Shown: piece by piece, positions 18,893 to 51,672 of the stretch
How the letters are laid out: each line of letters opens with the position of its first letter
Position numbering within the stretch: the stretch's first letter is position 1
Assembly (NCBI GenBank): GCA_016839785.1
Contig: JAEOTQ010000088.1
Span: 1 to 52,707 of the forward strand
Reading direction: 5' to 3'
Length of the DNA: 52,707 nt
Origin: Candidatus Hodarchaeota archaeon
Lineage (GTDB): Archaea > Asgardarchaeota > Heimdallarchaeia > Hodarchaeales > Hodarchaeaceae
Translations under genes and position numbers: made by a program
Notes under the pieces: model-generated
Database searches by the model: none
What the model was told of the DNA's origin: nothing
What the model saw: only the letters and a program-made list of their open reading frames with translations

Positions 18893-21772
18893 ATGAAAAT
18901 TTCGAAGGTAAATCCTAATCGCATTGGACATTATTCAGGAAGTGAAAGATTAGAAGATCCGACATTAGAGGAGCCTGATGAGGATACAGAAGAAGTTGCT
19001 TATTACTGGCATAATAATCCTGAATCTAAAGCTATTTTAAGAGAGGAAATGGGTAATAAACTTGAATCTTGGAACAAAGGTATAATAGATAAGTATCCTA
19101 ATTCTGAAATGTCCTTTCATCTAGTAGGACAATCCCATATTGATATCGCATGGTTATGGAGAATAGAACAAACCCGAAAAAAATCTGTTGTCACATTCAA
19201 AAAAGCTGTATACCATTCTAAACAATTTCCTAAAACGTACTGCTTTGCTCTAAGTGAGCCAATTTTACTTGAGTGGATATTAGAAGATGATCCTGAACTA
19301 TTCAAGGATATACAAAAAACTGTTGAGGATGGAGGTATAGAATTAGTGGGAGGATCATATGTTGAGCCTGATTGTATGATGCCCTGTGGTGAAGCGATTA
19401 CTAGAAGTCGGTTATACGGTCAAAGATTCTTTTTCAAGCATTTCAACCGTCTTCCAAAGGTTGAGTGGTTTTTAGACTCATTTGGATATTCAGCGGGCCT
19501 ACCTCAAATTTTAAAGAAAAGCGGAGCGGAATATATTTGGACAACAAAATTATCTTGGAATTTAGAAACTGTTTTTCCATTTTCCAACTTTTTTTGGGAA
19601 GGTGTTGATCAGACTCGGATTCAAACTGGAATCTTTCCTATGAGCTATGACCCTCTGAAAAATTGGGAAAAATTTGAGATCGGTCATCATCCACTTAAAT
19701 CTAATATCTCCTACTTGGGAAACTATGAAAGAGATTATTACGATCTTGCCCAATGGGTGGAAAAGGATGAGATTATTCCCCCCGTTGGATTATTTTTTGG
19801 TATGAGTGATGGAGGCCACGGGCCTACGTCTGAAGAAGTTGCTCGTGCAAATATGTTAATTGAATTAAGTGATAAATTTCATTGGAGTCGAGTAGAATCA
19901 TTCTTCCAGAAAATAAAGCAATGGGAACAACAATTTCCTATTTGGGCGGATGAATTGTATTTAGAAAATCATAGAGGATGTTTTTCTGTTCATGCGGAGG
20001 TTAAAAAGAAGAATCGGGTGTTTGAAAATCAACTTCTCTCTTCAGAAGCCTTGAGTTCGACGATGTCATTGCTACGGAATGAAAAAAATCAAAAAATCAC
20101 AGAAATTCTCGAAAAGACCTGGAAAACTGTTCTAAAAAATCAATTTCATGATATTCTTCCTGGAACCTCGATACCTGAAGTCTACGATGATATTTATGAG
20201 GATTGGGAAGAATGTTGCCAGAATATTAAGCTCATCAAGGATGAGATTAGCACGAAGATAAATGGCCCTTCAGAAAAATGCCAGTTTGTCATGTGGAATC
20301 CTCTGTCCTGGGAGAGAACGGCAAAAGTATTTATTCCTGTGAATGCAGTAAACAATAATATCAAGTTAGATGATGAAGGACGTCCTCCATTTGCAGAACT
20401 GACATATTTTAATCCATCCGAAAATACTATTTTAGCACAACCTGTCTCAGCAGAACCAAAAGAATGGCTTGACGCACGTCCCGCGGGTTGGTGGACAATT
20501 ATCCAACTTTCAGCCACAAGCCTTACTCCTGCATATATTTCTTTGAATGTAAAGATGAGCTCTAATAAAGAAATACACTCCGAACCATTAGTACTGGATA
20601 ATGACATAGTTAGTATTAAACTTGATTCCAAAACGGGAGGCCTCCTTTCTCTAACAAATTCCTCCATTCTAGAGAGAAAAAATTTGCTGAAGGGATCGAA
20701 TAATAACTTAACACAGGCTTATAAAGATATATCCGAGGATTGGCCTGCTTGGAATCTCACCCCTGAATATTGGAACCATTCACTTGAATTATCAAATTCG
20801 CAAGATGTACAAATTACACTTCGTGATAAGGGGCCAGTTTTTGCATCAATTGAGGTACAGAGAACTTTAGGAAAGCTAAAAAACCCAGTATTGCAACGAT
20901 ACACTCTTTTTAAGGGTCGTTCTGAAATTTATCTTGACTATATTGCTAATTGGAAACAACCTTTAGTCATGCTAAAAGTGGGGATACATACTGCTACTAA
21001 TGCAACACATTGTACGACCGATGTGATGTTCGGGGCCATTGAACAAAGTACAGATCCAAAAACCCCTGCGGATAAAGCACGGTTTGAAAAAATTTGTCAC
21101 AAATTTTATGATCTGAGTACACCCACAAATGAATGGGGAATTGCTACACTAAGTCAAGATAAGTATGCATTTAGTGTCAACAAGGGGTCCAGCTCCCTTA
21201 CAATGTTACGTACCCCACCGTACTTCCCCGCTTCACCAGAAGCATGGGTTCATGAGGAAAGAGCCATACGAAAAGAGAAATACGGAACAGAAGTACCAGA
21301 ATATTCAGGCCTTGGCCCACTTCGAAGTACATACGCTTATCTTCCACACAAGGGAGGTTCACTGCGATTACATAATGAAAAACCGAATCCTCTTGTTCGA
21401 CGAGCTGCAGAAGAGTTTAATCAACCTGTGCAAATATTGACACTGACAACTGTCCAAAACGTAAATAAAATTAAGGTTGATGGACAGCCACTAATTAAAA
21501 TTGAATCGGATTTTGCAATGCTCTCTGCTCTGAAGATGAATGAATGGAAAACAAATGATAATATAATAATCAGAGTAATAGAAATGCTAGGAGTCGGAGG
21601 AAAAGTTGAAATAGAATTAAATCCACTTATTCAAAGTAATATTATCTCTATTCAAGAAGTAGACTTACTTGAAAGACCTATGTCAGAAACACCAATAGAG
21701 AATAAACAAACAGGCTTTGCAATTACCTTAATCCCATTTGAAGCAAAAACTATTGAGTTAGTTATAGATTAA
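18893..21772 (+). CDS. GH38 alpha-mannosidase (cytosolic)
   Basis: GQSHIDIAWLW (Zn ligands), YVEPD, WFLDSFG (nucleophile), DGGHGP, ELYLENHRG, NQFHDILPG; no signal peptide. Confidence 0.93.
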   Translation: MKISKVNPNRIGHYSGSERLEDPTLEEPDEDTEEVAYYWHNNPESKAILREEMGNKLESWNKGIIDKYPNSEMSFHLVGQSHIDIAWLWRIEQTRKKSVVTFKKAVYHSKQFPKTYCFALSEPILLEWILEDDPELFKDIQKTVEDGGIELVGGSYVEPDCMMPCGEAITRSRLYGQRFFFKHFNRLPKVEWFLDSFGYSAGLPQILKKSGAEYIWTTKLSWNLETVFPFSNFFWEGVDQTRIQTGIFPMSYDPLKNWEKFEIGHHPLKSNISYLGNYERDYYDLAQWVEKDEIIPPVGLFFGMSDGGHGPTSEEVARANMLIELSDKFHWSRVESFFQKIKQWEQQFPIWADELYLENHRGCFSVHAEVKKKNRVFENQLLSSEALSSTMSLLRNEKNQKITEILEKTWKTVLKNQFHDILPGTSIPEVYDDIYEDWEECCQNIKLIKDEISTKINGPSEKCQFVMWNPLSWERTAKVFIPVNAVNNNIKLDDEGRPPFAELTYFNPSENTILAQPVSAEPKEWLDARPAGWWTIIQLSATSLTPAYISLNVKMSSNKEIHSEPLVLDNDIVSIKLDSKTGGLLSLTNSSILERKNLLKGSNNNLTQAYKDISEDWPAWNLTPEYWNHSLELSNSQDVQITLRDKGPVFASIEVQRTLGKLKNPVLQRYTLFKGRSEIYLDYIANWKQPLVMLKVGIHTATNATHCTTDVMFGAIEQSTDPKTPADKARFEKICHKFYDLSTPTNEWGIATLSQDKYAFSVNKGSSSLTMLRTPPYFPASPEAWVHEERAIRKEKYGTEVPEYSGLGPLRSTYAYLPHKGGSLRLHNEKPNPLVRRAAEEFNQPVQILTLTTVQNVNKIKVDGQPLIKIESDFAMLSALKMNEWKTNDNIIIRVIEMLGVGGKVEIELNPLIQSNIISIQEVDLLERPMSETPIENKQTGFAITLIPFEAKTIELVID

Positions 21773-22078: not shown

Positions 22079-22975
22079 CTAGAGTGCTTGCATTAACTTC
22101 GACTTGTCAATAGTGGCAACGCCAATTACTTTATCTGCACCACCATAATATACAAAATACTTGTTTTCCTTTTCTACTACACCGCAGGTGAAACAAACGT
22201 TTGGAACATCTCCATGAATCTCATAATCTTCTTCTGGAATCATAATTGGGTCTTCAATTCTCGAAATTATTTTACTAGGCTCATCTAAATCTAATAACAT
22301 CGCTCCTAGACTATAATGGAGATTCTTATCTACCCCATGATAAAATTCTAACCAACCTTCGTCAGTCTTGATCGGTGGAGCCCCAGCTCCAACTTTGAAA
22401 TCTTGCCAGCTATTCTCAATAGGTGCAAAGAATTTGGTGTGATCAGTCCAATTTTTTAAATCTTTGGAATAAGCTATCCACATGTCAGGTTCAGGAGCAC
22501 GATGCATCAAGACATATCTTCCATTAATTTTTTCAGGAAAGAGGACTCCATCCTTGTCTCTATATTCGTTAATTATAGTTCCATGCCTTTCAAACTTCTT
22601 AAAATCCAGAGTAGATGCGACTCCGATATGAAATTCAACATCCCCTGCAGGAATGAGTGTTTTGACTGCAGTATAGGTAATATAGTATTTATCATCTAAA
22701 AATGTTATGCGTGGATCTTCAATCCCAAATTTCTCATACTCAGCCTCAGGAACCATAATTGGATCTGCAAATTGCTCAAAATTATACCCATCTTTACTCA
22801 GAGCCAGTCCGAATGTTGAGATATATGTGTCATAATTCCCAATGGCACGATAAAGTAAAAGTACTTGTTCATTATATATAGTTGCAGCACAATTGAATAC
22901 TCCTCCTTTTTCCCAATCGTGATTATCATTCGGTACAATAATAGGATTTTTAGAATATCTTGTTAGAGAAACCAT
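22079..22975 (-). CDS. GH130 beta-mannoside phosphorylase
   Basis: FNCAA, EDPRIT, KDGVLFPEKINGRY..MHR, KVGAG, YHGV, GDVPNVCF; the basic phosphate-binding residues (R, K, H) are present. Confidence 0.9.
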   Translation of the reverse strand: MVSLTRYSKNPIIVPNDNHDWEKGGVFNCAATIYNEQVLLLYRAIGNYDTYISTFGLALSKDGYNFEQFADPIMVPEAEYEKFGIEDPRITFLDDKYYITYTAVKTLIPAGDVEFHIGVASTLDFKKFERHGTIINEYRDKDGVLFPEKINGRYVLMHRAPEPDMWIAYSKDLKNWTDHTKFFAPIENSWQDFKVGAGAPPIKTDEGWLEFYHGVDKNLHYSLGAMLLDLDEPSKIISRIEDPIMIPEEDYEIHGDVPNVCFTCGVVEKENKYFVYYGGADKVIGVATIDKSKLMQAL

Positions 22976-23103: not shown

Positions 23104-25551
23104 TTAACTTATTCTGTTGTCTGTCCAAGAGCTGAAAAAATTTGAATTTTCTTCTGGTAGGTTCTCAACTTTTACAGTGTAAGACTCATTGGGTAATAAA
23201 TTGAAACAATTATCCTGGGGATGTAGATCCCATGATATTGACACTAAGAATGTGAAAACATTAGAAATGAATGTTATAGTACTCTCATCAGTATTCACTT
23301 GAAATTTAACTTCAGGTTTATCTAATCTGAGATTTACAGGATCAGTAAGAAAGATATAATTCCTGTATTTACCCTTACTAGATTTAAAGTCAAGGACAAT
23401 AATATTATCTTCGATATTACCATTAAATGGAAATTTAATCATTTTGATATTATTAGGTTCAATAAATAGTTCATCATTTATATAATGATTTATTTTTCCA
23501 GGTAATACTATTCTAGAGACACTTAACGTTCCTACTATCGACTTTAAAGTATCATTTACTATAACGATTTTCTTTTCATTCTTATTATATGTAATTAATA
23601 ATGGAGAGTATGCATTTTTCGTGTACCAATATGCAACCTTAGGTATATCATAGTAATCAACTAATGACCAACAGATAGTTGGCCATGGTTCATTAAATTG
23701 CCATATCAATGATCCACTAGTGTTAAACTTTTGTGACCTCCAAAATTCAATAGCAAATTTCATTGCAAATGCTTGAGCTGTCTGTGAAAAAAGAATCCAC
23801 TCATTAATGTCTTTAGGGGTACCAAATTTTTCCATGTTAACATTTATCTTATCTAAAACACAATTATGAAATTTCCATGTTTCATTTGGACTGCTTTGAG
23901 TAGATTCATTAAATATCTTCGAAATAGTGTAATTTGAAGGCAAGCTCTGAATACCAAATTCGGATACAAATTTTGATTTAAATTTTCCATAGTGATCGTA
24001 AGTAGGGGGTTTTAAATTAGGTTGGTTCACCCCATGCCATACTTCCCAATTATGAGAATTCCCTTCATCTTGGGAGTTGGGATCGAACGTGTAGTCATTT
24101 TCAGATGATGGACTCCAAGGGCTAGACCTCCAAAATGGCCGAGATGGGTCTAAGTTTGAACAGAGCCTTCTCTTCAATGAATGTAACTTATCTCCAATTT
24201 TTTTCTCCTTTCTCTCTGCGATTGATATTTTTTGATAGTCAATCCACTCATTTTCATTATTTCCACACCATAAAACTATCGAAGGATGGTTTCTTAACCT
24301 TAAAATTATTTGTTGAATCTCTAATTCAACCAAAGCCAAATAATCTTCTGTTTCAGGATAGATACTACAGGCGAATTGAAAATCATGCCAGATCATTATT
24401 CCTAAACTATCACATAGTTCATAGAAGATGTTTCTTTCAACTACTCCACCGCCCCAAATCCTGAGCATATTGAAATTGGCATTTTTTGCCATATGTAGTA
24501 ATTTTAAGTATTTACCATCCTCGCTGAAATTGAGTAAAGCATCTGTTGGAACCCAATTTGCTCCCTTCGCGAAAATCATTTGATGATTTATCTCAAAGGT
24601 AAATCTATTTTCCTTTCCCTGATTTAATGCTAATTTGACAACTCTGATCCCAAATAGTAACTCTCGATGGACGTTTTCTCTTTTAATTGTAAGTTTTAAG
24701 CGGTACAAAGGTTGTTGTCCATACCCATTTGGCCACCACAGTTTTGGAGAGTCGATTACAAGTTTAGTCTCAAACTTATTATCTCCTTTTCTGATCAAAT
24801 ATGTAGATTCATCACTATAACAAATTTCATTATTATTGGTATCAAATATTTGTACTAAAAAGATGCTTTCTTTCGTCACTTCACTTTTAACTCCCCATTC
24901 TAAAAATTGCAAACATTTTTCTTTTTGGATATCCAAAGTATAAGTGAAGATATCCGAAATTTCAATTATTTCTTTTCTTGCAAGAATAACACTTCCTATA
25001 CCTTTTGTAAGAGACCTGGGGGCGAAATCCCATCCATAATTGTAGGTTGGCTTTCTGAAAATGACTCTTTCATTGAAAGGTTCCTCATACTCTGAGTTTA
25101 GAAATGCTGGAATAGGGGGATAAATAATAACAAAGATTTGATTAACTCCTTTTTTCAAATACTGTGAGGGAAGATCAACATTAATAATCATGTGTGCACA
25201 TTTTGTTTGTTTAATCAGGTGCCCATTAATGTAAATATCACCCACTGTATCGATAAAGTCGAATAATAGGATGTTTCTATCATCACATTGTTCAATGTGT
25301 ACTTCAGACAATAAAACAAGTGACTTATTTTCATATTTTAGGAATTTATTCATGTTCTTCTCATAATACGGATCTAGTCCCTCGCTTCTTACAATATTCG
25401 ATTGTAAAGTTCCTGGAACAATAAATTCAGATAGTTTATAGGGGTAAGAGGAAATTTTGGTTTCTTTTGTCATTAACCTTAAAATATTCTCTTTCTGGGT
25501 TCTATCTATTATGAAATATTGCCAATCTGAAATTTTTGTTCGATTTTGCAT
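23104..25551 (-). CDS. GH2 beta-mannosidase (cytosolic)
   Basis: YGWDFAP, WWPNGYG.QPLY, KGANWVP, NMLRIWGGG, WCGNNE (acid/base), FVSEFG (nucleophile), WQFNEPWP; no signal peptide. Confidence 0.92.
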   Translation of the reverse strand: MQNRTKISDWQYFIIDRTQKENILRLMTKETKISSYPYKLSEFIVPGTLQSNIVRSEGLDPYYEKNMNKFLKYENKSLVLLSEVHIEQCDDRNILLFDFIDTVGDIYINGHLIKQTKCAHMIINVDLPSQYLKKGVNQIFVIIYPPIPAFLNSEYEEPFNERVIFRKPTYNYGWDFAPRSLTKGIGSVILARKEIIEISDIFTYTLDIQKEKCLQFLEWGVKSEVTKESIFLVQIFDTNNNEICYSDESTYLIRKGDNKFETKLVIDSPKLWWPNGYGQQPLYRLKLTIKRENVHRELLFGIRVVKLALNQGKENRFTFEINHQMIFAKGANWVPTDALLNFSEDGKYLKLLHMAKNANFNMLRIWGGGVVERNIFYELCDSLGIMIWHDFQFACSIYPETEDYLALVELEIQQIILRLRNHPSIVLWCGNNENEWIDYQKISIAERKEKKIGDKLHSLKRRLCSNLDPSRPFWRSSPWSPSSENDYTFDPNSQDEGNSHNWEVWHGVNQPNLKPPTYDHYGKFKSKFVSEFGIQSLPSNYTISKIFNESTQSSPNETWKFHNCVLDKINVNMEKFGTPKDINEWILFSQTAQAFAMKFAIEFWRSQKFNTSGSLIWQFNEPWPTICWSLVDYYDIPKVAYWYTKNAYSPLLITYNKNEKKIVIVNDTLKSIVGTLSVSRIVLPGKINHYINDELFIEPNNIKMIKFPFNGNIEDNIIVLDFKSSKGKYRNYIFLTDPVNLRLDKPEVKFQVNTDESTITFISNVFTFLVSISWDLHPQDNCFNLLPNESYTVKVENLPEENSNFFSSWTDNRIS

Positions 25552-25647: not shown

Positions 25648-26112
25648 ATGCCATCATCCAAAAAATCAACTCTCGTAAAAGAAGGTAAATTAGAAAAAAA
25701 AGCTCTTCACGTCACTAAAGAGGAATTTTTTTCATTAAAACCTATTCAAAGCACATTCATAACTATTTTAAAGGAGAAAGATGATCAATTATTGTTGGAA
25801 CTTAACATAACAAAATTTAAGAAAAAATCTTTAAGAAAAAGATTAATCCCATCACCAAATTATAAGAAAATCCAATTAGACAAACTAGGAAAATTTACAT
25901 TCGAATTATGTGATGGTAATAACACAGTTAAACAAATCATTAAAAAATTTCAAGAAACGTTTAAATTAACGTTAACTGAGACAGAAACTGCTGTAACAAA
26001 ATATCTGACAATTCTTAATGCCCGACACTTAATCGGGTGGCAAATTCCTCAAGAGATGATGGAAAAAACAAACTTGAAAGAAAAAAGTGTTGAGGAGATA
26101 TCTCTAGATTAA
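25648..26112 (+). CDS. PqqD-family (RRE-like) protein
   Basis: LDKLGKFTFELCDGNNTVKQII...AVTKYLTILNARHLI matches the PqqD/RRE pattern. Confidence 0.75.
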   Translation: MPSSKKSTLVKEGKLEKKALHVTKEEFFSLKPIQSTFITILKEKDDQLLLELNITKFKKKSLRKRLIPSPNYKKIQLDKLGKFTFELCDGNNTVKQIIKKFQETFKLTLTETETAVTKYLTILNARHLIGWQIPQEMMEKTNLKEKSVEEISLD

Positions 26113-26134: not shown

Positions 26135-27091
26135 TCAGTTATTAGTGATTGCTAATTTAACTATATTCTCAATTATTTGTTCATTACGCTTTTGAGACTC
26201 GGTTTGACTTTTAAACTTGAATATTAAGCAATATATATCATTTTTTTCTTTATTTTGCCAAAAGAAACCTTGAATATCGGATTTTGGACGCAATGGGAGA
26301 TTTCTCCCTTGCGTATTCCTCCTGAAATGCCAAAAATTTCTTTCGGGTTTACTTGTTATTTTCTTGCTAAATTCATCTTCGCTTGGTTTAAAACCTGAAG
26401 GGATACCAGGGAGAGTTTTGGGATAATAATCTATGAACCACGCTGGTAATTCATCGATAGAAGAAATTTTCTGGTTTGCCAGACCCAATCTATAACAATA
26501 TATATCAAGAGACTTATAGCGAAGCTGAAAAAATGATAAACCAACTAAAAATGCCTGTTTAATTAATTTCATGGATCGTGGGGTAGTAATCGTTAGATTT
26601 GGTCCAACCCATTTACTCTCATAGTCTATCGGATGGCAATTTGCTGTTTCAAGAACCTGCATTATATCAGCTTTAATTTTCTTGGCTTCATCGTTTGAAA
26701 ACTGACTTTGCATGATGATTAGCCTTTTTAATATATCACAGTTCCAAACTACAATATAACCGTGTAGTGTCATATCTTCAGTAGCCCAATATAGCGTTTT
26801 TCCCTTATGATCAGAAATTTCAATAACCTTTTCCGTACGTTTCTTGATTTTCTTTTGTTTCTTCATAATAGTCTCGAAATAATCACTGATAACCACATCT
26901 AAATCAGGAATCTTTCCTTTCTCAACTTCCACCCATCGAAATTCCAGAATTTTTTTCTTTGTAGTGCGAAAACCAAAATAACCAGTTATTTCTTTACCTT
27001 TCTTCTTAGGTGTTTTTGTTGCAAACACAATTTCCCATTCATCAGGAACGTTTAAGACTATATCCTGCCAACCGATGGTTTTAAAGTCCAT
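26135..27091 (-). CDS. Hypothetical soluble protein, possibly two tandem PsbP/DcrB-like domains
   Basis: Long ORF without TM segments; LNVPDEW at the N-terminus and a similar ITTPRSM about 160 aa later. Confidence 0.55.
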   Translation of the reverse strand: MDFKTIGWQDIVLNVPDEWEIVFATKTPKKKGKEITGYFGFRTTKKKILEFRWVEVEKGKIPDLDVVISDYFETIMKKQKKIKKRTEKVIEISDHKGKTLYWATEDMTLHGYIVVWNCDILKRLIIMQSQFSNDEAKKIKADIMQVLETANCHPIDYESKWVGPNLTITTPRSMKLIKQAFLVGLSFFQLRYKSLDIYCYRLGLANQKISSIDELPAWFIDYYPKTLPGIPSGFKPSEDEFSKKITSKPERNFWHFRRNTQGRNLPLRPKSDIQGFFWQNKEKNDIYCLIFKFKSQTESQKRNEQIIENIVKLAITNN

Positions 27092-43150: not shown

Positions 43151-43321
43151 AAGTACTCATCAGGAATAATTATAATTTAACTGACTTATAATAGACTTTA
43201 AAATTCATTCGTTCCCCTTTAGACTAATTACTTTAAACGAGAAATAATCTTTTAAACCGCTGTTATTTTTTAATTTGATCAATAAAACAAAATACATCGT
43301 TGTTTCCCCTTGGTGGTTAGT

Positions 43322-45559
43322 ATGAAAAAGTCATTAAAATCCTTAATCTTTATTGTATTACTATTGTCTCTTCTAACTCAAGTAAATATTGGTCAGAGTG
43401 AACCAAAAACTGCTTCTGTTATAGAAGAACGAATATTATCTAAAACTGTTGCAACTGATGAGATGATCAAAGTAAACATCAATGTTACTGCACCTAGTAC
43501 TCATGATCTTCCAGCTTCCACAGCCATAATAATCAAATTAACCGAGATTGCCCCTAATCTACCAGTCTCGATTGATCCTTTTGGTATGAATACTCCTGAA
43601 AGCTCGGATGATATTAAATGGAATGCAGCGTATGTAACGCACAACGGTTCATTGATACCTTCTCAAGTAGATGATGTAGATGGCATCACAGGTTTTTCGG
43701 AAAATGATGAATTGCTGTTTGCGCTTCCAGAAGCAGTCGCCCTAACTGCAGGACAGAGTGATATCTTTACTGTCTATTTTAGTCCATTAGATTTAGATCT
43801 CCCCCCCCCATATTTTCCAGAAGTCTGCAGTATCATTGTTTATCCAAAACTGGAGGCAATTGATGCTTTACATTCAGATATGGTTGACACAAATGACGGA
43901 GCATTCTATATTGGGAATGGTCTCGTACAAGGGGCAGTATTAGTTGCAGCCGCGTGGTCTTCGGGATGTGTATATGAAATTTCGCTCTTAGATGACCAAG
44001 GTGAATCCCGATTTGATATAATTAAACAAAAATTCCCAGAAGAGGGGCAAAAGTGGAAATGGGCTCGGTTTGCTCGGTTTGAACAATTCACATCGCAAAA
44101 TCAATATGCTACTCGCCCTTACCCTGGCAAATTAATTGAAATGATCCCTGGGCCAATTCGTGCTCGAATTACTGTGCAAAGTACACAACCTTATACAAGA
44201 GGTGAATTTGGAGGGCCTGTCACTAAATTTGATCTTTTTGGCTTATTTACTTATGATGTATATGTTAATCAACCCTATCTTGATTATTCCATGGACATTA
44301 CAGGCCCCAGTGCTGGCAGTTACTCCGAGCTTGAACTTGAATACCAAAACCGAGAATGGGGTGGTGGAAGGGTTGGTACTTTTTATAAGGAAATTTATGT
44401 TCCAGGAATAGGATGGGTTATGCGAGGCCCAGATGATACCGATATCCACAGTATCGATGCAAGCAGCTTTGATTCCCCGTGGTATCTCGAGGCCTTGAAT
44501 GGAAAAACTATTATTCCTCCCCAATGGGAGGAACCAAACGACGATGAACTTGGTTTTGGATTCATTTTTGATGATATTGGTTTTAGTAATATCACTTGGA
44601 GTGCTTCAACTGAAGGGGTAAAGAATCTGTATCATGCTGCTCAGTTTCCTTTTAACACTAGGTACCATCCATTCGATATTGATACTCTTGGAGGCCAAGA
44701 CAAAATAGCCTTTATGGAAGATAGATATGTAGACTATTTGAGACCTGACCCGATACTCACCTTTAATAGCTCTATAATCTCTGTAGCTGACATACCTTTT
44801 GAATATCTATTTGTATCTGAACCAGAGGTCGATCTTGATTTTGATAATTATATCTTACAGATTGAGAATATTACCGCTTTTGCTACTGATACAGCAACAT
44901 TTGTTAATGATACAACCGCCATTAGTGCCACGTATAAGATACTGAATTTTAAAGAAAAAACAGAAACTGGAATAACAGGGGATCTAACATGGAATTCCAC
45001 ATCTCAAACGTGGGGGGTTCAAGATCTCGACATTTCAGCACTAAATCTATTTAATCCTTTCTTAGTCTTAGCAAACTTTGAAACGTCTACACTTACTGGG
45101 GAAAGTCCTCCTTCTGAACGCTGGGGAGGTGGTGCGGATGTTTTTCCTCCAATAATTGGTGCTGTTTCCAGAGATCCTTCTGATATCGTCAGGGATTCAC
45201 AGATGGTGAATATAAGTGCCTCTGTAGAAGATGATGAAGGGGAGGTCACATCAGTGATGTTGTCTTACTATAATGGAACGTGGTACAATATGACAATGCA
45301 ACCTGCATATGGGTTGTACAAAGCATCTATACCTCCTCAAGCTCAGGGAACCAAAGTCGAGTATAAGGTCACCGCCTATGATGATGCTGAACCCCGAAAT
45401 TTTAACACTTCAGAGATTTACAGTTACACTGTTGCCGTAGAATATTCCCCGGGACAAGGCTTAGTTCCACTATTCCTTGGTGGTGGAGTACTCATTGCTG
45501 CGGTAATTCTCGCGTTAAAATCTGGTGCACTTCATAGACTGAAGTATGATGAAGTATAG
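43322..45559 (+). CDS. Surface-anchored protein: DUF4861-like N-terminal region, Ig-like domain, C-terminal TM
   Basis: Signal peptide MKKSLKSLIFIVLLL; IPSQVDDVDG...DELLF; GPIRARI; DVFPPII...VEYKVTAYD Ig-like module; C-terminal TM. Confidence 0.65.
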   Translation: MKKSLKSLIFIVLLLSLLTQVNIGQSEPKTASVIEERILSKTVATDEMIKVNINVTAPSTHDLPASTAIIIKLTEIAPNLPVSIDPFGMNTPESSDDIKWNAAYVTHNGSLIPSQVDDVDGITGFSENDELLFALPEAVALTAGQSDIFTVYFSPLDLDLPPPYFPEVCSIIVYPKLEAIDALHSDMVDTNDGAFYIGNGLVQGAVLVAAAWSSGCVYEISLLDDQGESRFDIIKQKFPEEGQKWKWARFARFEQFTSQNQYATRPYPGKLIEMIPGPIRARITVQSTQPYTRGEFGGPVTKFDLFGLFTYDVYVNQPYLDYSMDITGPSAGSYSELELEYQNREWGGGRVGTFYKEIYVPGIGWVMRGPDDTDIHSIDASSFDSPWYLEALNGKTIIPPQWEEPNDDELGFGFIFDDIGFSNITWSASTEGVKNLYHAAQFPFNTRYHPFDIDTLGGQDKIAFMEDRYVDYLRPDPILTFNSSIISVADIPFEYLFVSEPEVDLDFDNYILQIENITAFATDTATFVNDTTAISATYKILNFKEKTETGITGDLTWNSTSQTWGVQDLDISALNLFNPFLVLANFETSTLTGESPPSERWGGGADVFPPIIGAVSRDPSDIVRDSQMVNISASVEDDEGEVTSVMLSYYNGTWYNMTMQPAYGLYKASIPPQAQGTKVEYKVTAYDDAEPRNFNTSEIYSYTVAVEYSPGQGLVPLFLGGGVLIAAVILALKSGALHRLKYDEV

Positions 45560-45609: not shown

Positions 45610-46062
45610 GCATTTTATTCAGTAGATTGACAACTGTGTCTTTAGGTGGTCTAGATGACTTCAAAATAAATTTTGATTTGTGGAATTGCCCAAGAAGAAA
45701 TACATATTAATTTTTTTCTTGTTTTATAAGAAAAAAAACGGGTAGTTAGCATGAATAAATTTGTCAGACAATTTTTTTAAGAAAAATTCTGGACAGGATG
45801 AGTCACAAATCCGTTATCCAGCAGGGTAGCAACAAGAGAAGGATTACTAACCATGGGAACTACTTAGGGATCAGTACGATAACAGTGAAGAATATCGTAG
45901 GGCACTTCTAATAAACAATCTAGTGATTATATATTATCCAACCCGTCTAACTCACCCATATTATGTTCAAGTTTAATATAGATTCGTAGTCATACTTAAA
46001 AAAGATAAACGATTAACAATAATTAAGGTAGAAAACACCTCTGTGTGTTTTTTCTATTCGTT

Positions 46063-46073
46063 AAAGGTTTAAT
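46063..46073 (+). promoter_or_regulatory. Candidate BRE/TATA box for the PGF-CTERM gene
   Basis: AAAGGTTTAAT about 45 bp upstream of ATG 46117. Confidence 0.35.
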
Positions 46074-46116
46074 TTTCAATATCTTAGCCTATTATAATTT
46101 AATATTGGTTTTTAAA

Positions 46117-47571
46117 ATGCAAAAAAGAAATATACAAATTCTATCAATAGGTCTTTTATTCCTATTATTTTTAATGCAGTCCCCTCAATCTGGGGCAGCT
46201 TCAGCTTCAGCGTACAATGCCGCTACCATCGTTGTTACAGCAGGTAGTGACGCCTTAGTTGTTGGTACTCCTATTATTATTGCTGGTTCAGATTTTTCAG
46301 GTGATTTCGCATTAGCAACAGCAGTTGTTATGGATGGCGCGACAGCCCTTCCTACACAATATGATGCTGGACTTGATGAACTAGTTTTCCAACTTCCCGC
46401 TGCACTTGCAGCAAGTGGTTCAAAAACATTTGAAGTACAAGCAGACGCAACAGGATCTTCAAATGGTCAAACATCAATTACGATGACTCGTGGTGACTAT
46501 AATGAAACCTACAGCGATTTCCTCCCAGCTTGGTCATCTGCATACATAATGAATGGTTCTGCTTTGGCCAATGATGTGCATTCTATCGGTGATGTCATTT
46601 GGGTAGATACTGACTGGGGTGTCCTTTGTTTACAAGTTGAAGCTAGCTGGAGACATGGCACCTGGAAACATGTCATTATGAAAGATAATAATTGGGATGT
46701 TGTTAGCGGATTTCTCAACGCAACTAGTGACTGGCGATGGCGCTGGGAAACTGGTCTCTTCCAAGATGCTGATGAAGGATGGCAAGTTGGCGGTCGTGGA
46801 CCTGATACTATCGAAATTGAATCCGCTGGACCCGTTCGTGCAGTCATAAGAGCAGTTGCAAACTCTCCTCACAGAGATTTGGACCAATACCTTGTTGAAA
46901 ATGCTAATGCTACTCGAACATATACAGTCTATAATGGAATCCCAGGAATTACTCAACATTTCGCAATTACAGGTCCTAACGCTACTCAGGCACACACTGA
47001 CTGGAGTGTCCTCAGTGAAGTGTTGGAACCCCTCAAAATGAAGCATCAACACTTGGATTCCACCTCTAACACTCTTGGATCAAATAATCTTACAAAAGTT
47101 TATGTTGCAGGCGATCCAACTCCAAGTAATGAGACTTACACACGAAATGCTGTAGCTAATTTAACTGCTGTAACTGATTCCTATTTCGCCGTATACAATG
47201 ACACTGATACGCGCGGGTACGTATACAATTGGGGTCCCTTTGAGTATCTAGATAATATTACCAATCTCGAGTTCGCTAATCAAATCGTTATGAATTACCG
47301 CTTCGATTATTTCCCTGCAGCAGGTTTTAACCGCTATTGGATACCTTTCAGTTCTTTCACAGGTAATATAGGTGATCATGCCGCTTCTCTGAATACTAAT
47401 ATGAAGTCCTTAATGGAGGCATCGTACACATTTGTTATAACAGAACATGATCCACCAACAACTACTACTACTACCACTACCACCGAAGATGGTGGGGCAC
47501 CTGGATTTGAACTAGTATTAGCAACCCTTAGTCTAGTAGGCGCATCGGTATTCATTAGAAAGAGAAGATAA
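46117..47571 (+). CDS. PGF-CTERM surface glycoprotein, distant paralogue of 43322..45559
   Basis: Signal peptide from MQKRNIQIL (ATG 46117); LPTQYD..LDELVFQLP; GPVRAVI; poly-Thr, APGF, TM, RKRR; many NxT/S sequons. Confidence 0.8.
   Translation: MQKRNIQILSIGLLFLLFLMQSPQSGAASASAYNAATIVVTAGSDALVVGTPIIIAGSDFSGDFALATAVVMDGATALPTQYDAGLDELVFQLPAALAASGSKTFEVQADATGSSNGQTSITMTRGDYNETYSDFLPAWSSAYIMNGSALANDVHSIGDVIWVDTDWGVLCLQVEASWRHGTWKHVIMKDNNWDVVSGFLNATSDWRWRWETGLFQDADEGWQVGGRGPDTIEIESAGPVRAVIRAVANSPHRDLDQYLVENANATRTYTVYNGIPGITQHFAITGPNATQAHTDWSVLSEVLEPLKMKHQHLDSTSNTLGSNNLTKVYVAGDPTPSNETYTRNAVANLTAVTDSYFAVYNDTDTRGYVYNWGPFEYLDNITNLEFANQIVMNYRFDYFPAAGFNRYWIPFSSFTGNIGDHAASLNTNMKSLMEASYTFVITEHDPPTTTTTTTTTEDGGAPGFELVLATLSLVGASVFIRKRR
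47458..47484 (+). repeat. ACN trinucleotide run encoding a 9-Thr linker
   Basis: Seen directly; precedes the PGF motif. Confidence 0.85.
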
Positions 47572-47753: not shown

Positions 47754-49613
47754 TTATTCTTTCATTGGCAGAATTGTATACGTAAAGACAGCTATTAAGG
47801 TTAATCCAGAAATTCCTAGAAATAGAACAATTGGTAACTCTTCTAAGGAGTTCTGTCCTTGAGGGTTTGTCGTAACGTATGTTATAGGCAGTGTCCATTC
47901 TGTGGATATTTCTGATAAAGTTATATAGGCCGATCCAAGAGGAGGAAGATCTGCAGTAAACAGTTCTCCTGGCTGGTATTGGCCACTTGAGGTTCCATTT
48001 ACATACACGTTGTATTGCTCGGTCAAGTGTTTTAATCTAAATTCCAAACTTTTTTGTTGTGCATAAGGATTAAAAATAACATAAACACGATCTTCAGGAT
48101 TAGGTGGAAAAGAATGATCAAATATATTTAGATTGACAATCAAAGAATTATTATCCGTTGCTTCTCCCAGTGCTTCAAACATTAAATAGTTCCATAATGT
48201 TTCTCCAGCCCCATAAATTTCTTTTCCGTTGTATCCTGCTTTTAATGGATCAGGATCATAAGCTCCTCTAGTAGCATGGTAATCAATATCCTCATAGGGA
48301 ACATATTGCAGTGTAGTTGGTCCATAATCTCTTTCATACACATCAGGTACGTTAGGACTAAAGAAGTAAAAATTTTTTATTCGATTCAAATTTAAAATCT
48401 TTAGGGGTTCAACAGATTTGAATCCAGGTCTAAAATACAGATCTTTAAGGAAGGATGTCCAAAATAAGATCGATTCGATATTTTCTTTGTATGCTGGAGC
48501 ATTAATTCCTCCAGTATTGACTTCCTTTGGATTAGCATAGGGGGAATGCATTCCATCCCGCCAGTTTGAGGGTAACCAAGGACTAGGATCAGAATTAAAT
48601 CCAAATGACCAATCAATTCTTCCATTATTATAATAGAGCACCTGTTCTTCTGCGTAAAATAAATCGATAGCCAATTGAGCAAAATCAGTTGTGGAATCAA
48701 TTATGTCTGCATACTGAAAAAGCCTTGACGCCGCGGCCACTCCTGCAGCTATCTCCTGTGGTTCATACATCAGCTTATATGGTTCTTTAACTGATCTGAT
48801 TGCTTCAAGAGCAGTTTTAGCTTCAAATAGGTAATTGATATTACCCGTAAGCTCATAAGCGTCTAGTAAACTAAACGCTAATAAACCAGAGGTGCCATAA
48901 TTAATATTCTCATTTCTAGTTTGTTGTTTTGTTTCAACACTAACAAACTGTGGGAATAAATAGTTAAAGTTGTGAGCCATATCTATAGCACTCCCGAGAG
49001 AGCCAAAATAAGATTCATCTAAAGCTGAAGATTCACTCATCATAAATAATTGCCCCCATTTCAAAACAGAGTTTTCTAAATAGTACCAAGAGTCGTGAGA
49101 AGTTTCTCCTGGACCATTGGTAGCTTGTTCATATACTTCAGAGTAGTACAATGATAGACTATTTATGAATTCGTCAACTAGTGATTGTTGTGTAGAATTT
49201 GGATGTAGTTGTAGAAACCGAAAAAGTGGCCAGATTACATCTACTGTTGCTATAAGCTCAGAACTTTCTCTGGTCCAATCCTCTCCTCCCCAACCATCAG
49301 CCCCCTTTACATACGGTCGAAATCCTATATTTCCTCCAGATAAATTAATCCAACATTCATCAAATGTTAAAAGATCATCAATACTCTTTCGAGTATAATC
49401 TGTCCAATTTGTAGCATATTCAGGGAATTCAGTGTACGCTGGTAATGTATTAATTGCGGCTTTACGTGATGTAATCATTGAATCCCAGTCAGTATAGATA
49501 TTAACTTTATTTATAGGCTCAGGTTGATTAAAAACAAGGAGTAGTAAAGTAAGTACACTAATTATGCAAATAACAATTAACATGTATCGGAAGGAGAAGA
49601 AATTAAGCTTCAT
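47754..49613 (-). CDS. Secreted/membrane-anchored alpha/alpha-barrel glycosidase-like protein (paralogue of 31073..33499)
   Basis: N-terminal signal/TM, C-terminal TM, AYELTGNINYL helical motif, motifs shared with 31073..33499. Confidence 0.65.
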   Translation of the reverse strand: MKLNFFSFRYMLIVICIISVLTLLLLVFNQPEPINKVNIYTDWDSMITSRKAAINTLPAYTEFPEYATNWTDYTRKSIDDLLTFDECWINLSGGNIGFRPYVKGADGWGGEDWTRESSELIATVDVIWPLFRFLQLHPNSTQQSLVDEFINSLSLYYSEVYEQATNGPGETSHDSWYYLENSVLKWGQLFMMSESSALDESYFGSLGSAIDMAHNFNYLFPQFVSVETKQQTRNENINYGTSGLLAFSLLDAYELTGNINYLFEAKTALEAIRSVKEPYKLMYEPQEIAAGVAAASRLFQYADIIDSTTDFAQLAIDLFYAEEQVLYYNNGRIDWSFGFNSDPSPWLPSNWRDGMHSPYANPKEVNTGGINAPAYKENIESILFWTSFLKDLYFRPGFKSVEPLKILNLNRIKNFYFFSPNVPDVYERDYGPTTLQYVPYEDIDYHATRGAYDPDPLKAGYNGKEIYGAGETLWNYLMFEALGEATDNNSLIVNLNIFDHSFPPNPEDRVYVIFNPYAQQKSLEFRLKHLTEQYNVYVNGTSSGQYQPGELFTADLPPLGSAYITLSEISTEWTLPITYVTTNPQGQNSLEELPIVLFLGISGLTLIAVFTYTILPMKE

Positions 49614-49689: not shown

Positions 49690-51672
49690 TCAAGTTCTCC
49701 TCTTTTTACGTAGGAGAAGGATGATTGTACCCAATGCAAAGGTTACACTTTTAACACTTGAGAATGGACTCGTTCTTGTAGTTGTTGTGGTTGTAGTAGT
49801 CTCCTGAGTGGAATCGTCCCTGGTGACAGAAATTGTTGTGGTGGTCGTAGTTGTTGTAGTTGGTTCAACAGGTTCATAATCCACAGTTACATTATTTATC
49901 ATGGTTCTTGTCTCATCGTAAGTAATATTTCCTTCTACAGGAGCAACGACAATAATATAGGAAGTATCTGCGGGAATTTCAAATGTTGTTATCCCTGTAA
50001 CATTCGTTACGAGGAATGATCCCGAAGTAGTCTCGTATAAACTTTTATTCTCTAAACCAACGTCAATCTCAACAGTTTTACTAATATTATGAGGATTAAA
50101 ATATAGATACGTTGGATAAGCTTCTTCGTGATAATAATCTGTTACTAAACAGTCTAGTTGCAAAATCTTTTCATCATTTGTAGGTGCGATGATTGCGCCT
50201 AAATTTCCCACATGAGAGCTTCCATATAAACCTAGATTGGTAGCTCCAGTCTGGTCAGTGTATCTATTGGGGTTATGATCGCCAGTTGCGAGAGGAATTA
50301 TACCATTCCAATCTTTCCTTAGTGATTCATATGCTACACAATTGTTTGGGTCGTAAATATCTTTCCAGTCTTCACTATCCTGGTGAGCAGCATCTAGATC
50401 GGTACCATAATGTAAACGGGCGGCATTAGCCGCATTCAGTACAAATTTACCAATATCATGAGCATACCGATCATCATATCGAACTACTGGTACTAATGCT
50501 CCGACTGTTTCAAAGGTATTCATCGCAAATGCATATCCTCCCAAGTCTGTAATGCTTCCTGATAAACCATAGACGTCAAAACCTCCCCACTGATCAGCAA
50601 TAACCCCCCAGCCTCTACGTACAGCACCAGTGCCCGTTCCAAAGCACCAATCAATCATTTTATTCACATTGTATGCTCTACCAAGTTCTGCATTCATACG
50701 GGCGGTAATCAATACACCATATAGCATTAATACCTCATAGTATGGATTAAAGGAAAGTGAGTTTAAATAATCAACACACCACTCCGCTGCAATCAAATAT
50801 TTTGGATCACCGAATTTCAAATAGGCCATATACTCTATCCAAGCGATGGCTCCTGCTGCATCAGGTTCCTCCCATTCCGTTCTTAGCATATTATCGTAAG
50901 GAGCCATCACATCAAAATCAAACGACGTATGTAAAAAATTTGGTAAGGTCCAAGGAGAAATTTTCCCACCCAAACTCACGCATGCATCATACCATCTATT
51001 AGCGACACCCCGCATCTGATTTTCAAAGTCTCCAACGTCAGGATAATAATCTGCGAGCATATAAAATAATAAATTAGGAAATAAGACATACCAAAAACTT
51101 GATCTTGATCCAGTTTGTAGATTATTTAAGTAAATATACTGGTTAGTATCTATATTATACCAATTTTCACACATTTCCACCCAGTTATACCCACTCTGGT
51201 TGCTTTTATCAATTCCTACCAGTGTTGCACTCAGAACGGCCGCCATTAGATTTATAGCTTCATCGTTCATTGGTAATCCTATATAGGAGGGGGCTCTAAA
51301 AACATCACGATTGCCTGCTGCTCCCCAATGATTGGTTCCTATTGATGTCAGCGGTAAAAATGTTCCTGTGGCACTTAGATTAAAAAATAATGTATCATAA
51401 TCATGTGCAACTTGTTTCCAATCCCTCATGTTGAAGGGCTCAGGAAGATTGGGCATAAGAGCTACTCTTGTTATTTGACCGATTTCATCTACTGATTCAA
51501 TTTTAAGATTATTTTGGCTCCTAAATGATCCAATTAAGTTACCTGAACCAAGAACGAGTAGCAAGCATATAACTAGAGAGGCTAGCATTATCCCCCTTAT
51601 TCGAAAATTATGAGTTCTGTTTGGAAATGCCATGTGTTCGATGTGAATTTCTGTAATAATAAGTGTTTTCAC
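49690..51672 (-). CDS. Surface-anchored uncharacterised alpha/alpha-barrel glycosidase-like protein with Thr linker and CTERM-like tail
   Basis: Signal peptide (true start probably an internal ATG such as 51633); MPNLPEPFNMRDW, EPDAAG, AYLKFGDPKYL; poly-Thr, SPF, TM, RKKRR. Confidence 0.65.
   Translation of the reverse strand: MKTLIITEIHIEHMAFPNRTHNFRIRGIMLASLVICLLLVLGSGNLIGSFRSQNNLKIESVDEIGQITRVALMPNLPEPFNMRDWKQVAHDYDTLFFNLSATGTFLPLTSIGTNHWGAAGNRDVFRAPSYIGLPMNDEAINLMAAVLSATLVGIDKSNQSGYNWVEMCENWYNIDTNQYIYLNNLQTGSRSSFWYVLFPNLLFYMLADYYPDVGDFENQMRGVANRWYDACVSLGGKISPWTLPNFLHTSFDFDVMAPYDNMLRTEWEEPDAAGAIAWIEYMAYLKFGDPKYLIAAEWCVDYLNSLSFNPYYEVLMLYGVLITARMNAELGRAYNVNKMIDWCFGTGTGAVRRGWGVIADQWGGFDVYGLSGSITDLGGYAFAMNTFETVGALVPVVRYDDRYAHDIGKFVLNAANAARLHYGTDLDAAHQDSEDWKDIYDPNNCVAYESLRKDWNGIIPLATGDHNPNRYTDQTGATNLGLYGSSHVGNLGAIIAPTNDEKILQLDCLVTDYYHEEAYPTYLYFNPHNISKTVEIDVGLENKSLYETTSGSFLVTNVTGITTFEIPADTSYIIVVAPVEGNITYDETRTMINNVTVDYEPVEPTTTTTTTTTISVTRDDSTQETTTTTTTTRTSPFSSVKSVTFALGTIILLLRKKRRT
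49777..49860 (-). repeat. Two poly-Thr-encoding ACN runs (stalk)
   Basis: Seen directly. Confidence 0.8.

Follow-up and report, generated by a model that had tools for sequence, protein, structure and literature searches.

How could an archaeon capture and consume a mannose-rich glycan? The question is raised by a locus at positions 18,893 to 51,672 of a 52,707-nucleotide stretch of DNA from a Candidatus Hodarchaeota archaeon (assembly GCA_016839785.1, contig JAEOTQ010000088.1, forward strand), in which genes for three mannoside-active enzymes of glycoside hydrolase (GH) families 38, 130 and 2 are followed by genes for membrane proteins and for four surface-anchored proteins. Clusters of genes that link glycan breakdown at the surface with uptake play a central part in carbon turnover. 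They are so far understood in Bacteroidota, where SusC/SusD proteins do the uptake, and in organisms using binding-protein-dependent ATP-binding cassette (ABC) transporters. A preliminary description of the whole stretch (hereafter the window) had likened the locus to the polysaccharide utilisation loci (PULs) of Bacteroidota. We now think, with moderate confidence, that it is one of a family of glycan-utilisation loci organised around a nine-gene core in this Hodarchaeales-type genus, and that its substrate is a mannoside-rich glycan or mannoprotein.

The window, contig C40 in our numbering, has a G+C content of about 35% and belongs to an assembly of 4.04 Mb in 248 contigs that is 84.5% complete. 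Open reading frames (ORFs) were taken at their longest possible extent. Those of at least 100 amino acids (aa) were scanned with Pfam (37 ORFs; eight shorter ones nested within scanned ORFs on other frames were left out) and 20 were scanned with NCBIfam. Literature searches, with subscription journals outside their coverage, found no publication describing this cluster and none containing the terms DUF6785 or DUF6784.

A fixed core with a variable enzyme complement

The core consists of nine genes, encoding a PqqD-like protein, soluble proteins of 318 and 226 aa, a minimal FtsX-type permease of 200 aa (FtsX200), two ABC ATPases, a 1512-aa FtsX protein that carries an M28-like domain (M28-FtsX) and two permeases with an oligopeptide transporter (OPT) type fold, namely the DUF6785 protein and a 633-aa protein (Table 1). 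With the 1512-aa protein as query, orthologs were sought in 61 genomes of the class, one of them the window's own. Full-length orthologs were present in 12 of the 22 genomes of the window's genus (again including its own) and in none of the 39 genomes from other genera. The DUF6785 protein and the family of the 749-aa surface protein occurred in the same 12 genomes and were absent from the same 10, five of which are 90–95% complete. The genomes being kin, this co-occurrence is suggestive and not a statistical test.

We then compared 11 neighbourhoods from relatives in the genus with the window proteins; several of the contigs end within the cluster. The genes for the 125-aa protein, FtsX200, both ATPases, the 808-aa protein, DUF6785, M28-FtsX and the 633-aa protein were adjacent in all 11, at protein identities of about 45–93%. 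The 226-aa gene was found in ten neighbourhoods, the 749-aa and 318-aa genes in nine each, the PqqD-like gene in eight, a gene of the 619-aa type in seven, the 508-aa and alcohol dehydrogenase genes in six each and the 660-aa gene in three. One genome (G010) has the cluster split into a transport module at 0.81 Mb and a surface module (226 partial, 749, 508, GH130 and 660) at 3.89 Mb, and each module is intact. In the same genome (L010:6408-9722) the 633-aa gene is followed by a gene for a 1104-aa S8 subtilase that has CARDB repeats and weakly matches ABC_transp_aux, and then by a TrmB-type regulator gene. The preliminary description had left it to synteny whether the genes belong together: they are not scattered, their order is kept in all 11 relatives and the three markers are inherited together in 12 of 22 genomes.

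The enzymes attached to this core differ from genome to genome. Orthologs of GH130 (72–93% identity) lie in the neighbourhoods of G002, G008, G011 and G012 and beside surface-module genes in G010 and G020; the gene sits at one end of the cluster in the window and in G002, and between surface-protein genes in the other five. GH2 orthologs are linked to the cluster in G002, G004 and G020, while G008 and G016 have paralogs of 32–34% identity there; two different GH2 lineages abut the cluster. GH38 was found in the neighbourhood of the nearest relative, G002 (75% identity). Other glycosidases occupy the cluster edge elsewhere (GH4 and GH20 in G008, GH4 in G012). In G019 the PqqD-like gene comes immediately after the lipoate-ligase gene, which in the window lies ahead of GH38; the GH38-GH130-GH2 block is therefore an insertion or deletion at the cluster boundary. 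That is, the enzyme complement varies around a fixed core.

Paralogous loci extend this pattern. Second copies of DUF6785 in G008 and G004 lie within a paralogous locus, which in G008 (C49; L041:6276-19328, L042:49-19925) holds homologs of all nine core genes at 23–68% identity and in G004 (C104; L043:543-19986) six core homologs before the contig start. FtsX200 is the 47–48% identical member of this set, the 318-aa and 226-aa homologs are 23–27% and 23–26% identical, and the PqqD-like homolog of G008 is 28% identical. The G008 locus encodes an M28-FtsX protein of 1652 aa and an additional FtsX-type protein of 991 aa. Flanking the paralogous loci are genes for three GH57 proteins anchored at both the N- and the C-terminus (1342, 1382 and 979 aa), for a cytosolic GDE_C enzyme and for a protein with ten transmembrane (TM) segments and a Glucodextran_C module (a glucodextranase-type binding module); mannoside enzymes and peptidases are not among the flanking genes. 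By gene content, the paralogous locus probably represents the same system in a version for alpha-glucans. In a metagenome contig (L069:298-10712), M28-FtsX (1496 aa), DUF6785 and a 649-aa protein are encoded next to an apiosidase-like hydrolase that carries DUF5060 and a collagen-binding-type domain. The same core with different surface and cytosolic enzymes follows the logic of polysaccharide utilisation loci.

Distant, mostly bacterial DUF6785 genes were also inspected. From 137 listed flanking ORFs, 39 were dropped by hand and 98 scanned; eight encode GH or polysaccharide lyase (PL) catalytic domains and one a peptidase. These homologs have no adjacent type VII ABC partner, except for two loci with FtsX200 and one with M28-FtsX. 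In one sediment RNA library, contigs mostly at least 99% identical to the locus cover 15 of its 30 bins and fall on GH130, one ATPase, DUF6785, M28-FtsX and the 633-aa gene, a weak hint of expression.

Table 1. Features of the locus in the order of their positions in the window
Feature	Position	Strand	Basis or remark
GH38 alpha-mannosidase (predicted), 959 aa, cytosolic-type (no signal peptide), accessory	18893..21772	+	Pfam
GH130, beta-1,2-mannoside-phosphorylase-like, 298 aa, cytosolic (predicted)	22079..22975	-	Pfam PF04041
GH2 beta-mannosidase-like, 815 aa, cytosolic (predicted)	23104..25551	-	Pfam GH2 domains
PqqD-like protein, 154 aa, core	25648..26112	+	Pfam PqqD, 28 bits
318-aa soluble protein, core	26135..27091	-	no Pfam or NCBIfam match
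Zn-dependent alcohol/polyol dehydrogenase (predicted), 348 aa, variable	27163..28209	+	Pfam ADH_N, ADH_zinc_N
125-aa Cys-rich soluble protein	28303..28680	+	stop codon overlaps start of next gene
Minimal FtsX-type permease (FtsX200), 200 aa, 4 TM, no ectodomain	28677..29279	+	Pfam FtsX
Two ABC ATPases, 240 and 248 aa, MacB/LolD/FtsE type	29295..30768	+	Pfam ABC_tran
808-aa barrel-superfamily protein, cytosolic (predicted), no TM segment	31073..33499	-	paralogy with 619-aa protein
DUF6785/DUF6784 polytopic protein, 728 aa, candidate importer	33796..35982	+	Pfam
1512-aa M28-FtsX fusion protein	36004..40542	+	Pfam Peptidase_M28, MacB_PCD, FtsX
633-aa polytopic protein, OPT-like, distant DUF6785 paralog	40561..42462	+	hhalign
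226-aa soluble protein, core	42470..43150	-	neighbourhood conservation
749-aa surface-anchored protein (predicted), orphan family	43310..45559	+	N- and C-terminal hydrophobic segments
508-aa surface protein (predicted), Thr-rich stalk, Heimdall-CTERM	46045..47571	+	NF045529
619-aa surface-anchored protein (predicted), GH76-like (alpha/alpha)6 barrel and beta-sandwich	47754..49613	-	AlphaFold2 model
660-aa surface-anchored barrel-superfamily protein (predicted), Thr-rich stalk	49690..51672	-	hhalign
Pyroglutamyl peptidase (C15)	51698..52333	-	Pfam, 184 bits; cluster edge

The ABC unit and the OPT-fold permeases

FtsX200 matches the Pfam FtsX model (61.9 bits) and, in NCBIfam, the C-terminal region of LolCE/MacB. 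The two ATPases are paralogs, 49% identical to each other, with MacB, LolD, DevA and FtsE as their top NCBIfam models. The 1512-aa protein begins with a signal anchor, an ectodomain of about 800 aa that includes the M28-like domain, and extra TM helices; a MacB-type periplasmic core domain (MacB_PCD 26.3 bits, slightly below the cut-off of 27), the FtsX domain with four TM helices (43.4 bits) and a cytosolic tail make up the remainder. With FtsX domains, a periplasmic core domain and LolD/MacB-type ATPases, the unit is by sequence a predicted type VII ABC system of the MacB/FtsX type. It shares with MacB, LolCDE and FtsEX the four-TM FtsX domain, the MacB-type periplasmic core domain and the kind of ATPase, but differs from them in having two different ATPases and FtsX partners of unequal size (200 versus 1512 aa), in the large ectodomain with its catalytically degenerate M28 domain, in being constantly paired with two OPT-fold permeases and four soluble proteins, and in belonging to an archaeal host with a single membrane.

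An active M28 metallopeptidase has the MEROPS-type metal-binding and catalytic residues His/Asp/Glu-Glu/Asp/His. Across the 15 orthologs and paralogs that were aligned, Gly-His invariably stands in place of Glu-Glu, the first His position holds Tyr or His and the last His or Gln. Since the Glu-Glu pair is replaced and two His positions vary, the domain is probably not a peptidase. Two shorter M28-FtsX paralogs in the window's own genome, of 1251 aa (G000:C181:1871-5626) and 1257 aa (G000:C146:11425-15198) and 50–56% identical, are missing some 250 residues, the part with the MacB periplasmic core domain; both contigs are short, and neither DUF6785 nor a glycosidase gene lies beside these paralogs. 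The short type also occurs in G002, G004, G006, G008, G009, G012 and G013. The 1512-aa ortholog at G002:C96:48615-53141 was reported with one in-frame TAA stop, and separate ORF calling gave a frame of 1501 aa.

For the DUF6785 protein, an AlphaFold2 model (pLDDT 75.5, pTM 0.82) was compared with solved structures using Foldseek. The only matches at E ≤ 0.001 were two structures of barley Yellow Stripe 1, 7wst (E 7.3e-11) and 7wsr (4.4e-10); the model aligned with 7wst over about 700 columns at TM scores of 0.59/0.69 and 15–16% identity, and the next match had an E value of 0.1. The 633-aa family was linked to a deep DUF6785 alignment by hhalign (94.5%, E 7.4e-8, 491 columns) and to the genome's own OPT protein (84%, E 7.6e-6). 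Shallow hhalign comparisons of DUF6785 with the 633-aa family or with the own OPT protein gave nothing; only the deeper alignment connected DUF6785 to the 633-aa family. A search of the genome with the Pfam OPT family (PF03169) returned only another gene, on C89, and one DUF6785 relative carries a precomputed PF03169 match. Going by the structural model and the profile comparisons, we assign both proteins to the permeases of OPT-superfamily fold, on which the Pfam OPT model is silent. DUF6785, so far only a domain-of-unknown-function name, is thereby given a place in the OPT fold. The likeness to OPT/YSL transporters such as barley Yellow Stripe 1 lies in the overall fold of the model, and the differences in the setting: DUF6785 genes neighbour glycosidase genes rather than peptide- or metal-related ones, and two divergent copies always flank the FtsX gene.

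These results change how the import side is to be seen. The statement in the preliminary description that no solute-binding-protein (SBP) ABC, MFS or SSS sugar importer is present is correct for those families in the 37 scanned ORFs, but it is misleading, because the locus has a MacB/FtsX-type ABC system and two OPT-fold permeases. Unlike the SBP-dependent clusters of carbohydrate-active enzymes (CAZymes) in Gram-positives and archaea, the locus has neither an SBP nor type I ABC permeases nor a MalK-type ATPase.

Surface barrels and cytosolic mannoside enzymes

Each of the four surface proteins has an N-terminal and a C-terminal hydrophobic segment, with N-terminal Kyte-Doolittle maxima (15-residue windows, first 70 residues) of 2.5–3.4, and none contains a Pfam family at E ≤ 0.001. 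The 508-aa protein ends in the Heimdall-CTERM sorting signal (NF045529, 25.4 bits versus a cut-off of 24, residues 484–508); NCBIfam gave no Heimdall-CTERM match in the 749-, 619- and 660-aa proteins. The four had been described as members of unassigned families, which holds for the Pfam scan and for the anchors, but by profile comparison they reduce to two superfamilies, two of the proteins being GH76-like by predicted fold. The 749-aa and 508-aa families are paralogs (hhalign 99.1%, E 1.5e-18). For the 749-aa family we found 21 relatives among 5.8e9 clusters, all names given being Hodarchaeales or Heimdallarchaeota; its profile had no relative among the sequences of the Protein Data Bank (PDB), and comparison with the barrel family showed no relationship.

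The second superfamily unites the 619-aa, 660-aa and 808-aa proteins. The 808-aa and 619-aa proteins are 28% identical over 573 columns (E 5e-39), and the 660-aa protein joins them by hhalign (97.3%, E 1.9e-11, 437 columns). The 808/619 profile found only 349 representatives among 1.84 billion proteins. Of 49 that were scanned, 32 had no Pfam family, 15 carried domains for carbohydrate binding or secretion, namely Laminin_G_3, F5/8 type C, CBM96, HpiC1-like or SLH domains or type IX secretion system (T9SS) tails, and two had weak GH88 or C5-epimerase matches. The 660-aa family is larger: it numbers at least 1661 relatives, and many are bacterial proteins that bear T9SS tails or Laminin_G_3, PKD or CBM9 domains. 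The 660-aa protein is 45–55% identical to secreted proteins of many bacterial phyla, an identity across domains that suggests gene transfer between bacteria and these archaea. One UniRef name among its relatives is 'Linalool dehydratase...'.

What these proteins might do is indicated by the AlphaFold2 model of the 619-aa protein (pLDDT 90.5, pTM 0.86), in which an (alpha/alpha)6-type barrel and a beta-sandwich are framed by anchor helices at the N- and the C-terminus. In an exhaustive VIA-align comparison with 48,161 chains, the top five matches were all GH76 alpha-1,6-mannanases (Z 25.3–23.2, 309–336 residues, rmsd 3.4–4.0), followed by a polysaccharide lyase (Z 21.6), AGE epimerases (about Z 20) and the fungal protein Dfg5 (Z 19.6). 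The 619/808 profile ranked GH76 first among PDB sequences as well: the first six hits were all GH76, with a best E value of 3.4e-5 over one helix hairpin only. Foldseek placed GH127/GH146, AGE epimerases and GH88 first, at low TM scores; we prefer the VIA-align ranking because it agrees with the independent sequence profile. The fold comparison was made with the 619-aa model, to which the 808- and 660-aa proteins are tied by homology. Single-sequence searches against PDB chains gave nothing meaningful for the 808-aa, 660-aa and DUF6785 proteins, nor did the profile of the 660-aa family find anything there. Among solved folds, the modelled 619-aa barrel is thus closest to that of the GH76 alpha-1,6-mannanases, and predicted glycoside-hydrolase-type barrels on the 619- and 660-aa proteins fit surface cleavage. 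The window proteins share with GH76 the (alpha/alpha)6 barrel and the pairing of surface and internal copies described for the Bacteroides thetaiotaomicron mannan PULs. They differ in their C-terminal beta-sandwich, in an N-terminal domain of about 240 residues in the 808-aa form and in having no Pfam or NCBIfam match, and other (alpha/alpha)6 families follow close behind in the fold ranking (PL Z 21.6, AGE about Z 20).

The three mannoside-active enzymes lie within 6.7 kb. That they lack signal peptides, as the preliminary description had it, agrees with their N-termini, which are not hydrophobic (maxima of -0.49 for GH38, 0.89 for GH130 and 0.87 for GH2). The GH38 protein matches the N, middle, C and C2 domain models of its family with 203.7, 82.1, 101.2 and 41.7 bits (cut-offs 25, 31.1, 25 and 22; Pfam E 5e-60), and its nearest solved chains are the Ams1-type alpha-mannosidases 7ufs (1e-62), 6lz1 and 5jm0. 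The GH2 protein exceeds the Pfam cut-offs for Glyco_hydro_2_N2 (60.7 bits) and Glyco_hydro_2 (33.2 bits) and falls slightly below that of the TIM-barrel model (20.2 versus 21); in the PDB, beta-mannosidases such as 5n6u (1e-110) and BtMan2A (2je8, 4e-82) are its relatives, and the 15 top sequences are all beta-mannosidases or GH2. The assembly holds one full GH38 gene and two GH130 genes, and neither a further GH2 nor a further GH38 came up in tblastn at E ≤ 1e-6; by a rough estimate, the three families would come to lie within 6.7 kb by chance with a probability of the order of 1e-5. The second GH130 gene is on C125, outside any glycan cluster.

The GH130 protein matches Glyco_hydro_130 with 232.9 bits (gathering cut-off 26, E 6e-69), and its top NCBIfam model is beta-1,2-mannobiose phosphorylase (NF052550), matched over the full length with 334.9 bits, which does not reach the equivalog cut-off of 450. 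Among PDB chains, the phosphorylases of beta-1,2-oligomannan and of beta-1,2-mannobiose, 9fj8 (3.5e-81) and 7fip (1.6e-80), stand well before UhgbMP (1e-39) and the BT3780-type hydrolases (1e-24 to 1e-27). In GH130 hydrolases, as described in PMC4599007, the basic phosphate-binding residues of the phosphorylases are replaced by carboxylates. By sequence, the window enzyme is nearest to the beta-1,2-mannoside phosphorylases and not to the N-glycan-core type. Of the two substrates proposed earlier, N-glycan cores or mannans, the former is therefore weak for this window, where the enzyme indicates beta-1,2-mannosides. A related-locus search seeded with GH130 returned only close relatives and two bacterial loci.

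A proposed route for mannosides, and its alternatives

Under the reading we favour, a glycan-utilisation locus for a mannoside-rich glycan or mannoprotein, the 619- and 660-aa GH76-like barrels and the orphan 749- and 508-aa proteins would bind and cut the polymer outside the cell, and the OPT-fold permeases would take fragments in. The type VII ABC unit would not translocate sugar itself but perform ATP-driven work on the outer face, where it would hold or feed the substrate or else control the surface enzymes. Cytosolic breakdown by the 808-aa GH76-like protein, GH38, GH2 and GH130 could release mannose and mannose-1-phosphate. Phosphomannomutase-type enzymes (four PGM/PMM-type genes are present in the genome) might pass these on to central metabolism, or they might be converted to GDP-mannose by the product of a ManC-like gene (13496-14575), which lies 7.5 kb upstream. 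The earlier scheme of surface cleavage, import and cytosolic breakdown is in line with the conserved unit, the paralogous core and the GH76-like barrels; less so with the enzymes, as GH38 is shared with the nearest relative only and GH2 is variable.

The likeness to the Sus-like PULs of Bacteroidota, above all to MAN-PUL1-3 of B. thetaiotaomicron for yeast alpha-mannan, lies in the co-encoding of surface endo-enzymes, a membrane uptake core and internal exo-enzymes, and in the reuse of the core with other enzyme sets in paralogous loci. PMC4978465 and PMC4599007 describe how, in the yeast-mannan PULs of B. thetaiotaomicron, surface and periplasmic GH76 enzymes, the GH38 enzyme BT3774 and the beta-1,2-specific GH130 enzyme BT3780 act together; the enzyme overlap with the window comprises GH76 or GH76-like proteins outside and inside, GH38 and a beta-1,2-type GH130. 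The transport core is a different one. None of the 37 scanned ORFs encodes a SusC-like TonB-dependent transporter or a SusD-like lipoprotein; there is no outer membrane, and the type VII ABC unit, the pseudo-M28 domain and the two OPT-fold permeases make up the core instead. The internal enzymes are predicted to be cytosolic where those of Bacteroidota are periplasmic, the GH130 protein is phosphorylase-like and BT3780 a hydrolase, the GH76-like proteins stand outside GH76 by sequence, and no hybrid two-component or ECF-sigma regulator was seen in the window. Another parallel, for the cytosolic side, is the Thermoanaerobacter cluster Teth514_1785-1796, which according to PMC4264767 has cytosolic GH130 beta-1,2-mannoside phosphorylase(s) and a mannose-1-phosphate guanylyltransferase-type gene nearby.

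Several points weigh against this reading. All relatives come from one genus, so that the neighbourhood counts are not independent. The enzyme linkage fails in places: G016 has only GH130 fragments about 1.3 Mb from the cluster, no GH130 was found in G019, G010 and G012 have their 47% identical GH2 orthologs far away from the cluster, and searches of G008, G010, G011, G012 and G016 gave no GH38 at E ≤ 1e-20. Neither GH2 nor the 808-aa gene is covered by an RNA contig, and such libraries can contain DNA. The membrane proteins belong to classes with other known roles: type VII ABC systems serve, as far as is known, as exporters or mechanotransducers and not as importers, known OPT transporters carry peptides or metal chelates and not sugars, and PF03169 matches neither the DUF6785 nor the 633-aa protein at E ≤ 10. 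Nor do the barrels belong to GH76 by sequence: the 808- and 619-aa proteins have no Pfam match at E ≤ 10 and the 660-aa protein none that is relevant. We take the catalytic pair of GH76 to be two adjacent aspartates (the PDB title of 6shm names D136A/D137A). This pair was not located in the 808/619/660 family; its likely position reads Asn-Tyr by eye, and HMMER alignments cover the site inconsistently. The family does have invariant acidic residues. Because the pair could not be placed, we do not claim GH76 membership. Finally, the preliminary description had conceded that a conventional importer elsewhere might account for uptake. Candidates are indeed present: C10 carries a CUT1-like system that has a MalK-type ATPase, and C52 and C153 carry Opp/Dpp-type systems; the locus also has import candidates of its own in the OPT-fold permeases.

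A more far-reaching version of our reading, which we put forward tentatively, is that the locus encodes an undescribed glycan-capture and import machine, in which a heterodimeric type VII ABC mechanotransducer with a catalytically dead M28 ectodomain works with two OPT-fold permeases, exchangeable enzyme sets and at least two new CAZyme families. The permeases could then be the first carriers of oligosaccharides or glycoconjugates in their superfamily, conceivably in mannoside, alpha-glucan and apiosidase-like versions, and the GH76-like 808/619/660 superfamily and the orphan 749/508 family might be the new CAZyme families. Should our reading hold, DUF6785/DUF6784 would gain a function, the substrate range of the OPT superfamily would widen, the list of candidate glycoside hydrolase families would grow (one of the new ones is widespread among bacteria of sediments), and the nine-gene core would become a genomic marker predicting which glycans sediment Asgard archaea eat. 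PUL logic is seen here, on a different transport core, in an archaeal lineage usually placed nearest to eukaryotes.

The strongest alternative turns the system towards the cell's own surface. The barrels would trim or transfer mannose-rich envelope glycans and the ABC unit would activate or position the barrels, which we consider possible but unlikely; we give the same low credence to the accompanying salvage route, in which released fragments would be re-imported and converted via mannose-1-phosphate to GDP-mannose. The fungal GH76 proteins Dfg5 and Dcw1 act on wall mannoproteins, FtsEX activates wall hydrolases, and the beta-1,2 enzymes of GH130 are reversible. Glycan synthesis is encoded in the upstream half of the window, and together with a reversible GH130 this means that a role on the cell's own glycans fits too: the locus abuts genes for GT2 glycosyltransferases, a Polysacc_synt flippase and the ManC-like nucleotidyltransferase, Dfg5 is among the fold matches of the 619-aa protein, FtsX/MacB-type systems are established mechanotransducers, and NCBIfam FtsE and FtsX models match as well. 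In the paralogous locus, the ten-TM protein combines its glucodextranase-type module with a weak PMT_2 match (20.8 bits, below the cut-off). A role of this kind in salvage has a precedent in Thermoanaerobacter, whose beta-1,2-mannoside phosphorylases are proposed, in PMC4264767, to feed GDP-mannose salvage. Against it, the system is absent from 10 of the 22 genomes of the genus, including the five that are nearly complete, a strange pattern for envelope biogenesis; the enzymes attached to the core, catabolic exo-glycosidases, vary by genome (GH2, GH4, GH20, GH38, GDE_C); and the bacterial relatives of the barrels are secreted and bear carbohydrate-binding modules and T9SS tails, as foraging enzymes usually do.

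Could the cargo be peptides or glycopeptides instead? The OPT-fold permeases would import them after capture by the M28-like domain, the glycosidases would strip off sugars and the C15 peptidase would open blocked N-termini. The OPT fold of DUF6785 and the M28-type ectodomain speak for this, as do the PqqD-like domain (a peptide-binding fold in RiPP pathways, that is, those of ribosomally synthesised and post-translationally modified peptides), the neighbouring pyroglutamyl peptidase gene and the S8 subtilase gene after the 633-aa gene in G010; the nearest feature clusters of DUF6785 are named 'peptide transporter' (scores 0.82–0.83), a lead only. Yet the canonical Glu-Glu of M28 is missing from every one of the 15 sequences, the C15 gene is adjacent solely in the two nearest relatives, the paralogous locus has alpha-glucan enzymes and no peptidase, and glycosidases outnumber peptidases eight to one beside distant DUF6785 genes. 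We regard a peptide cargo as improbable. The C15 gene itself shares the strand of the 660-aa gene, 26 bases downstream of it, and is adjacent elsewhere only in G002 and G004; its part in the system is doubtful.

A last reading sees the locus as a loose gathering of unrelated genes that share no function, for a MacB-type exporter, for membrane proteins and for some glycosidases. This is very improbable and already contradicted by synteny, co-occurrence and the paralogous core: the cluster is not a single operon (at least six transcription directions or units), GH38 and GH2 differ between genomes and the G010 cluster lies in two pieces 3 Mb apart, but the order is kept in 11 of 11 neighbourhoods despite protein divergence (45–75% identity), the three markers are co-present in 12 and co-absent in 10 genomes, a full paralogous copy of the core exists at 23–68% identity, and the modules stay intact even in the G010 split.

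The glycan-biosynthesis cluster in the upstream half of the window (107-14575) comprises two GT2 genes and genes for a hexapeptide acyltransferase, a GFO/IDH/MocA oxidoreductase, the Polysacc_synt flippase, a glycerophosphotransferase-like protein, an LPG_synthase_TM protein and the ManC-like nucleotidyltransferase. Between it and the locus lie ordinary-looking genes, for a stand-alone response-regulator receiver protein and for CofC/CofD-type (F420-related) proteins (14639-15052 and 15174-17576). Inside the cluster, a 710-aa protein with N- and C-terminal anchors (11334-13466), unrelated to the 660-aa family by hhalign, shows weak matches to GH47 (22.6 bits, cut-off 22.9) and GH127.

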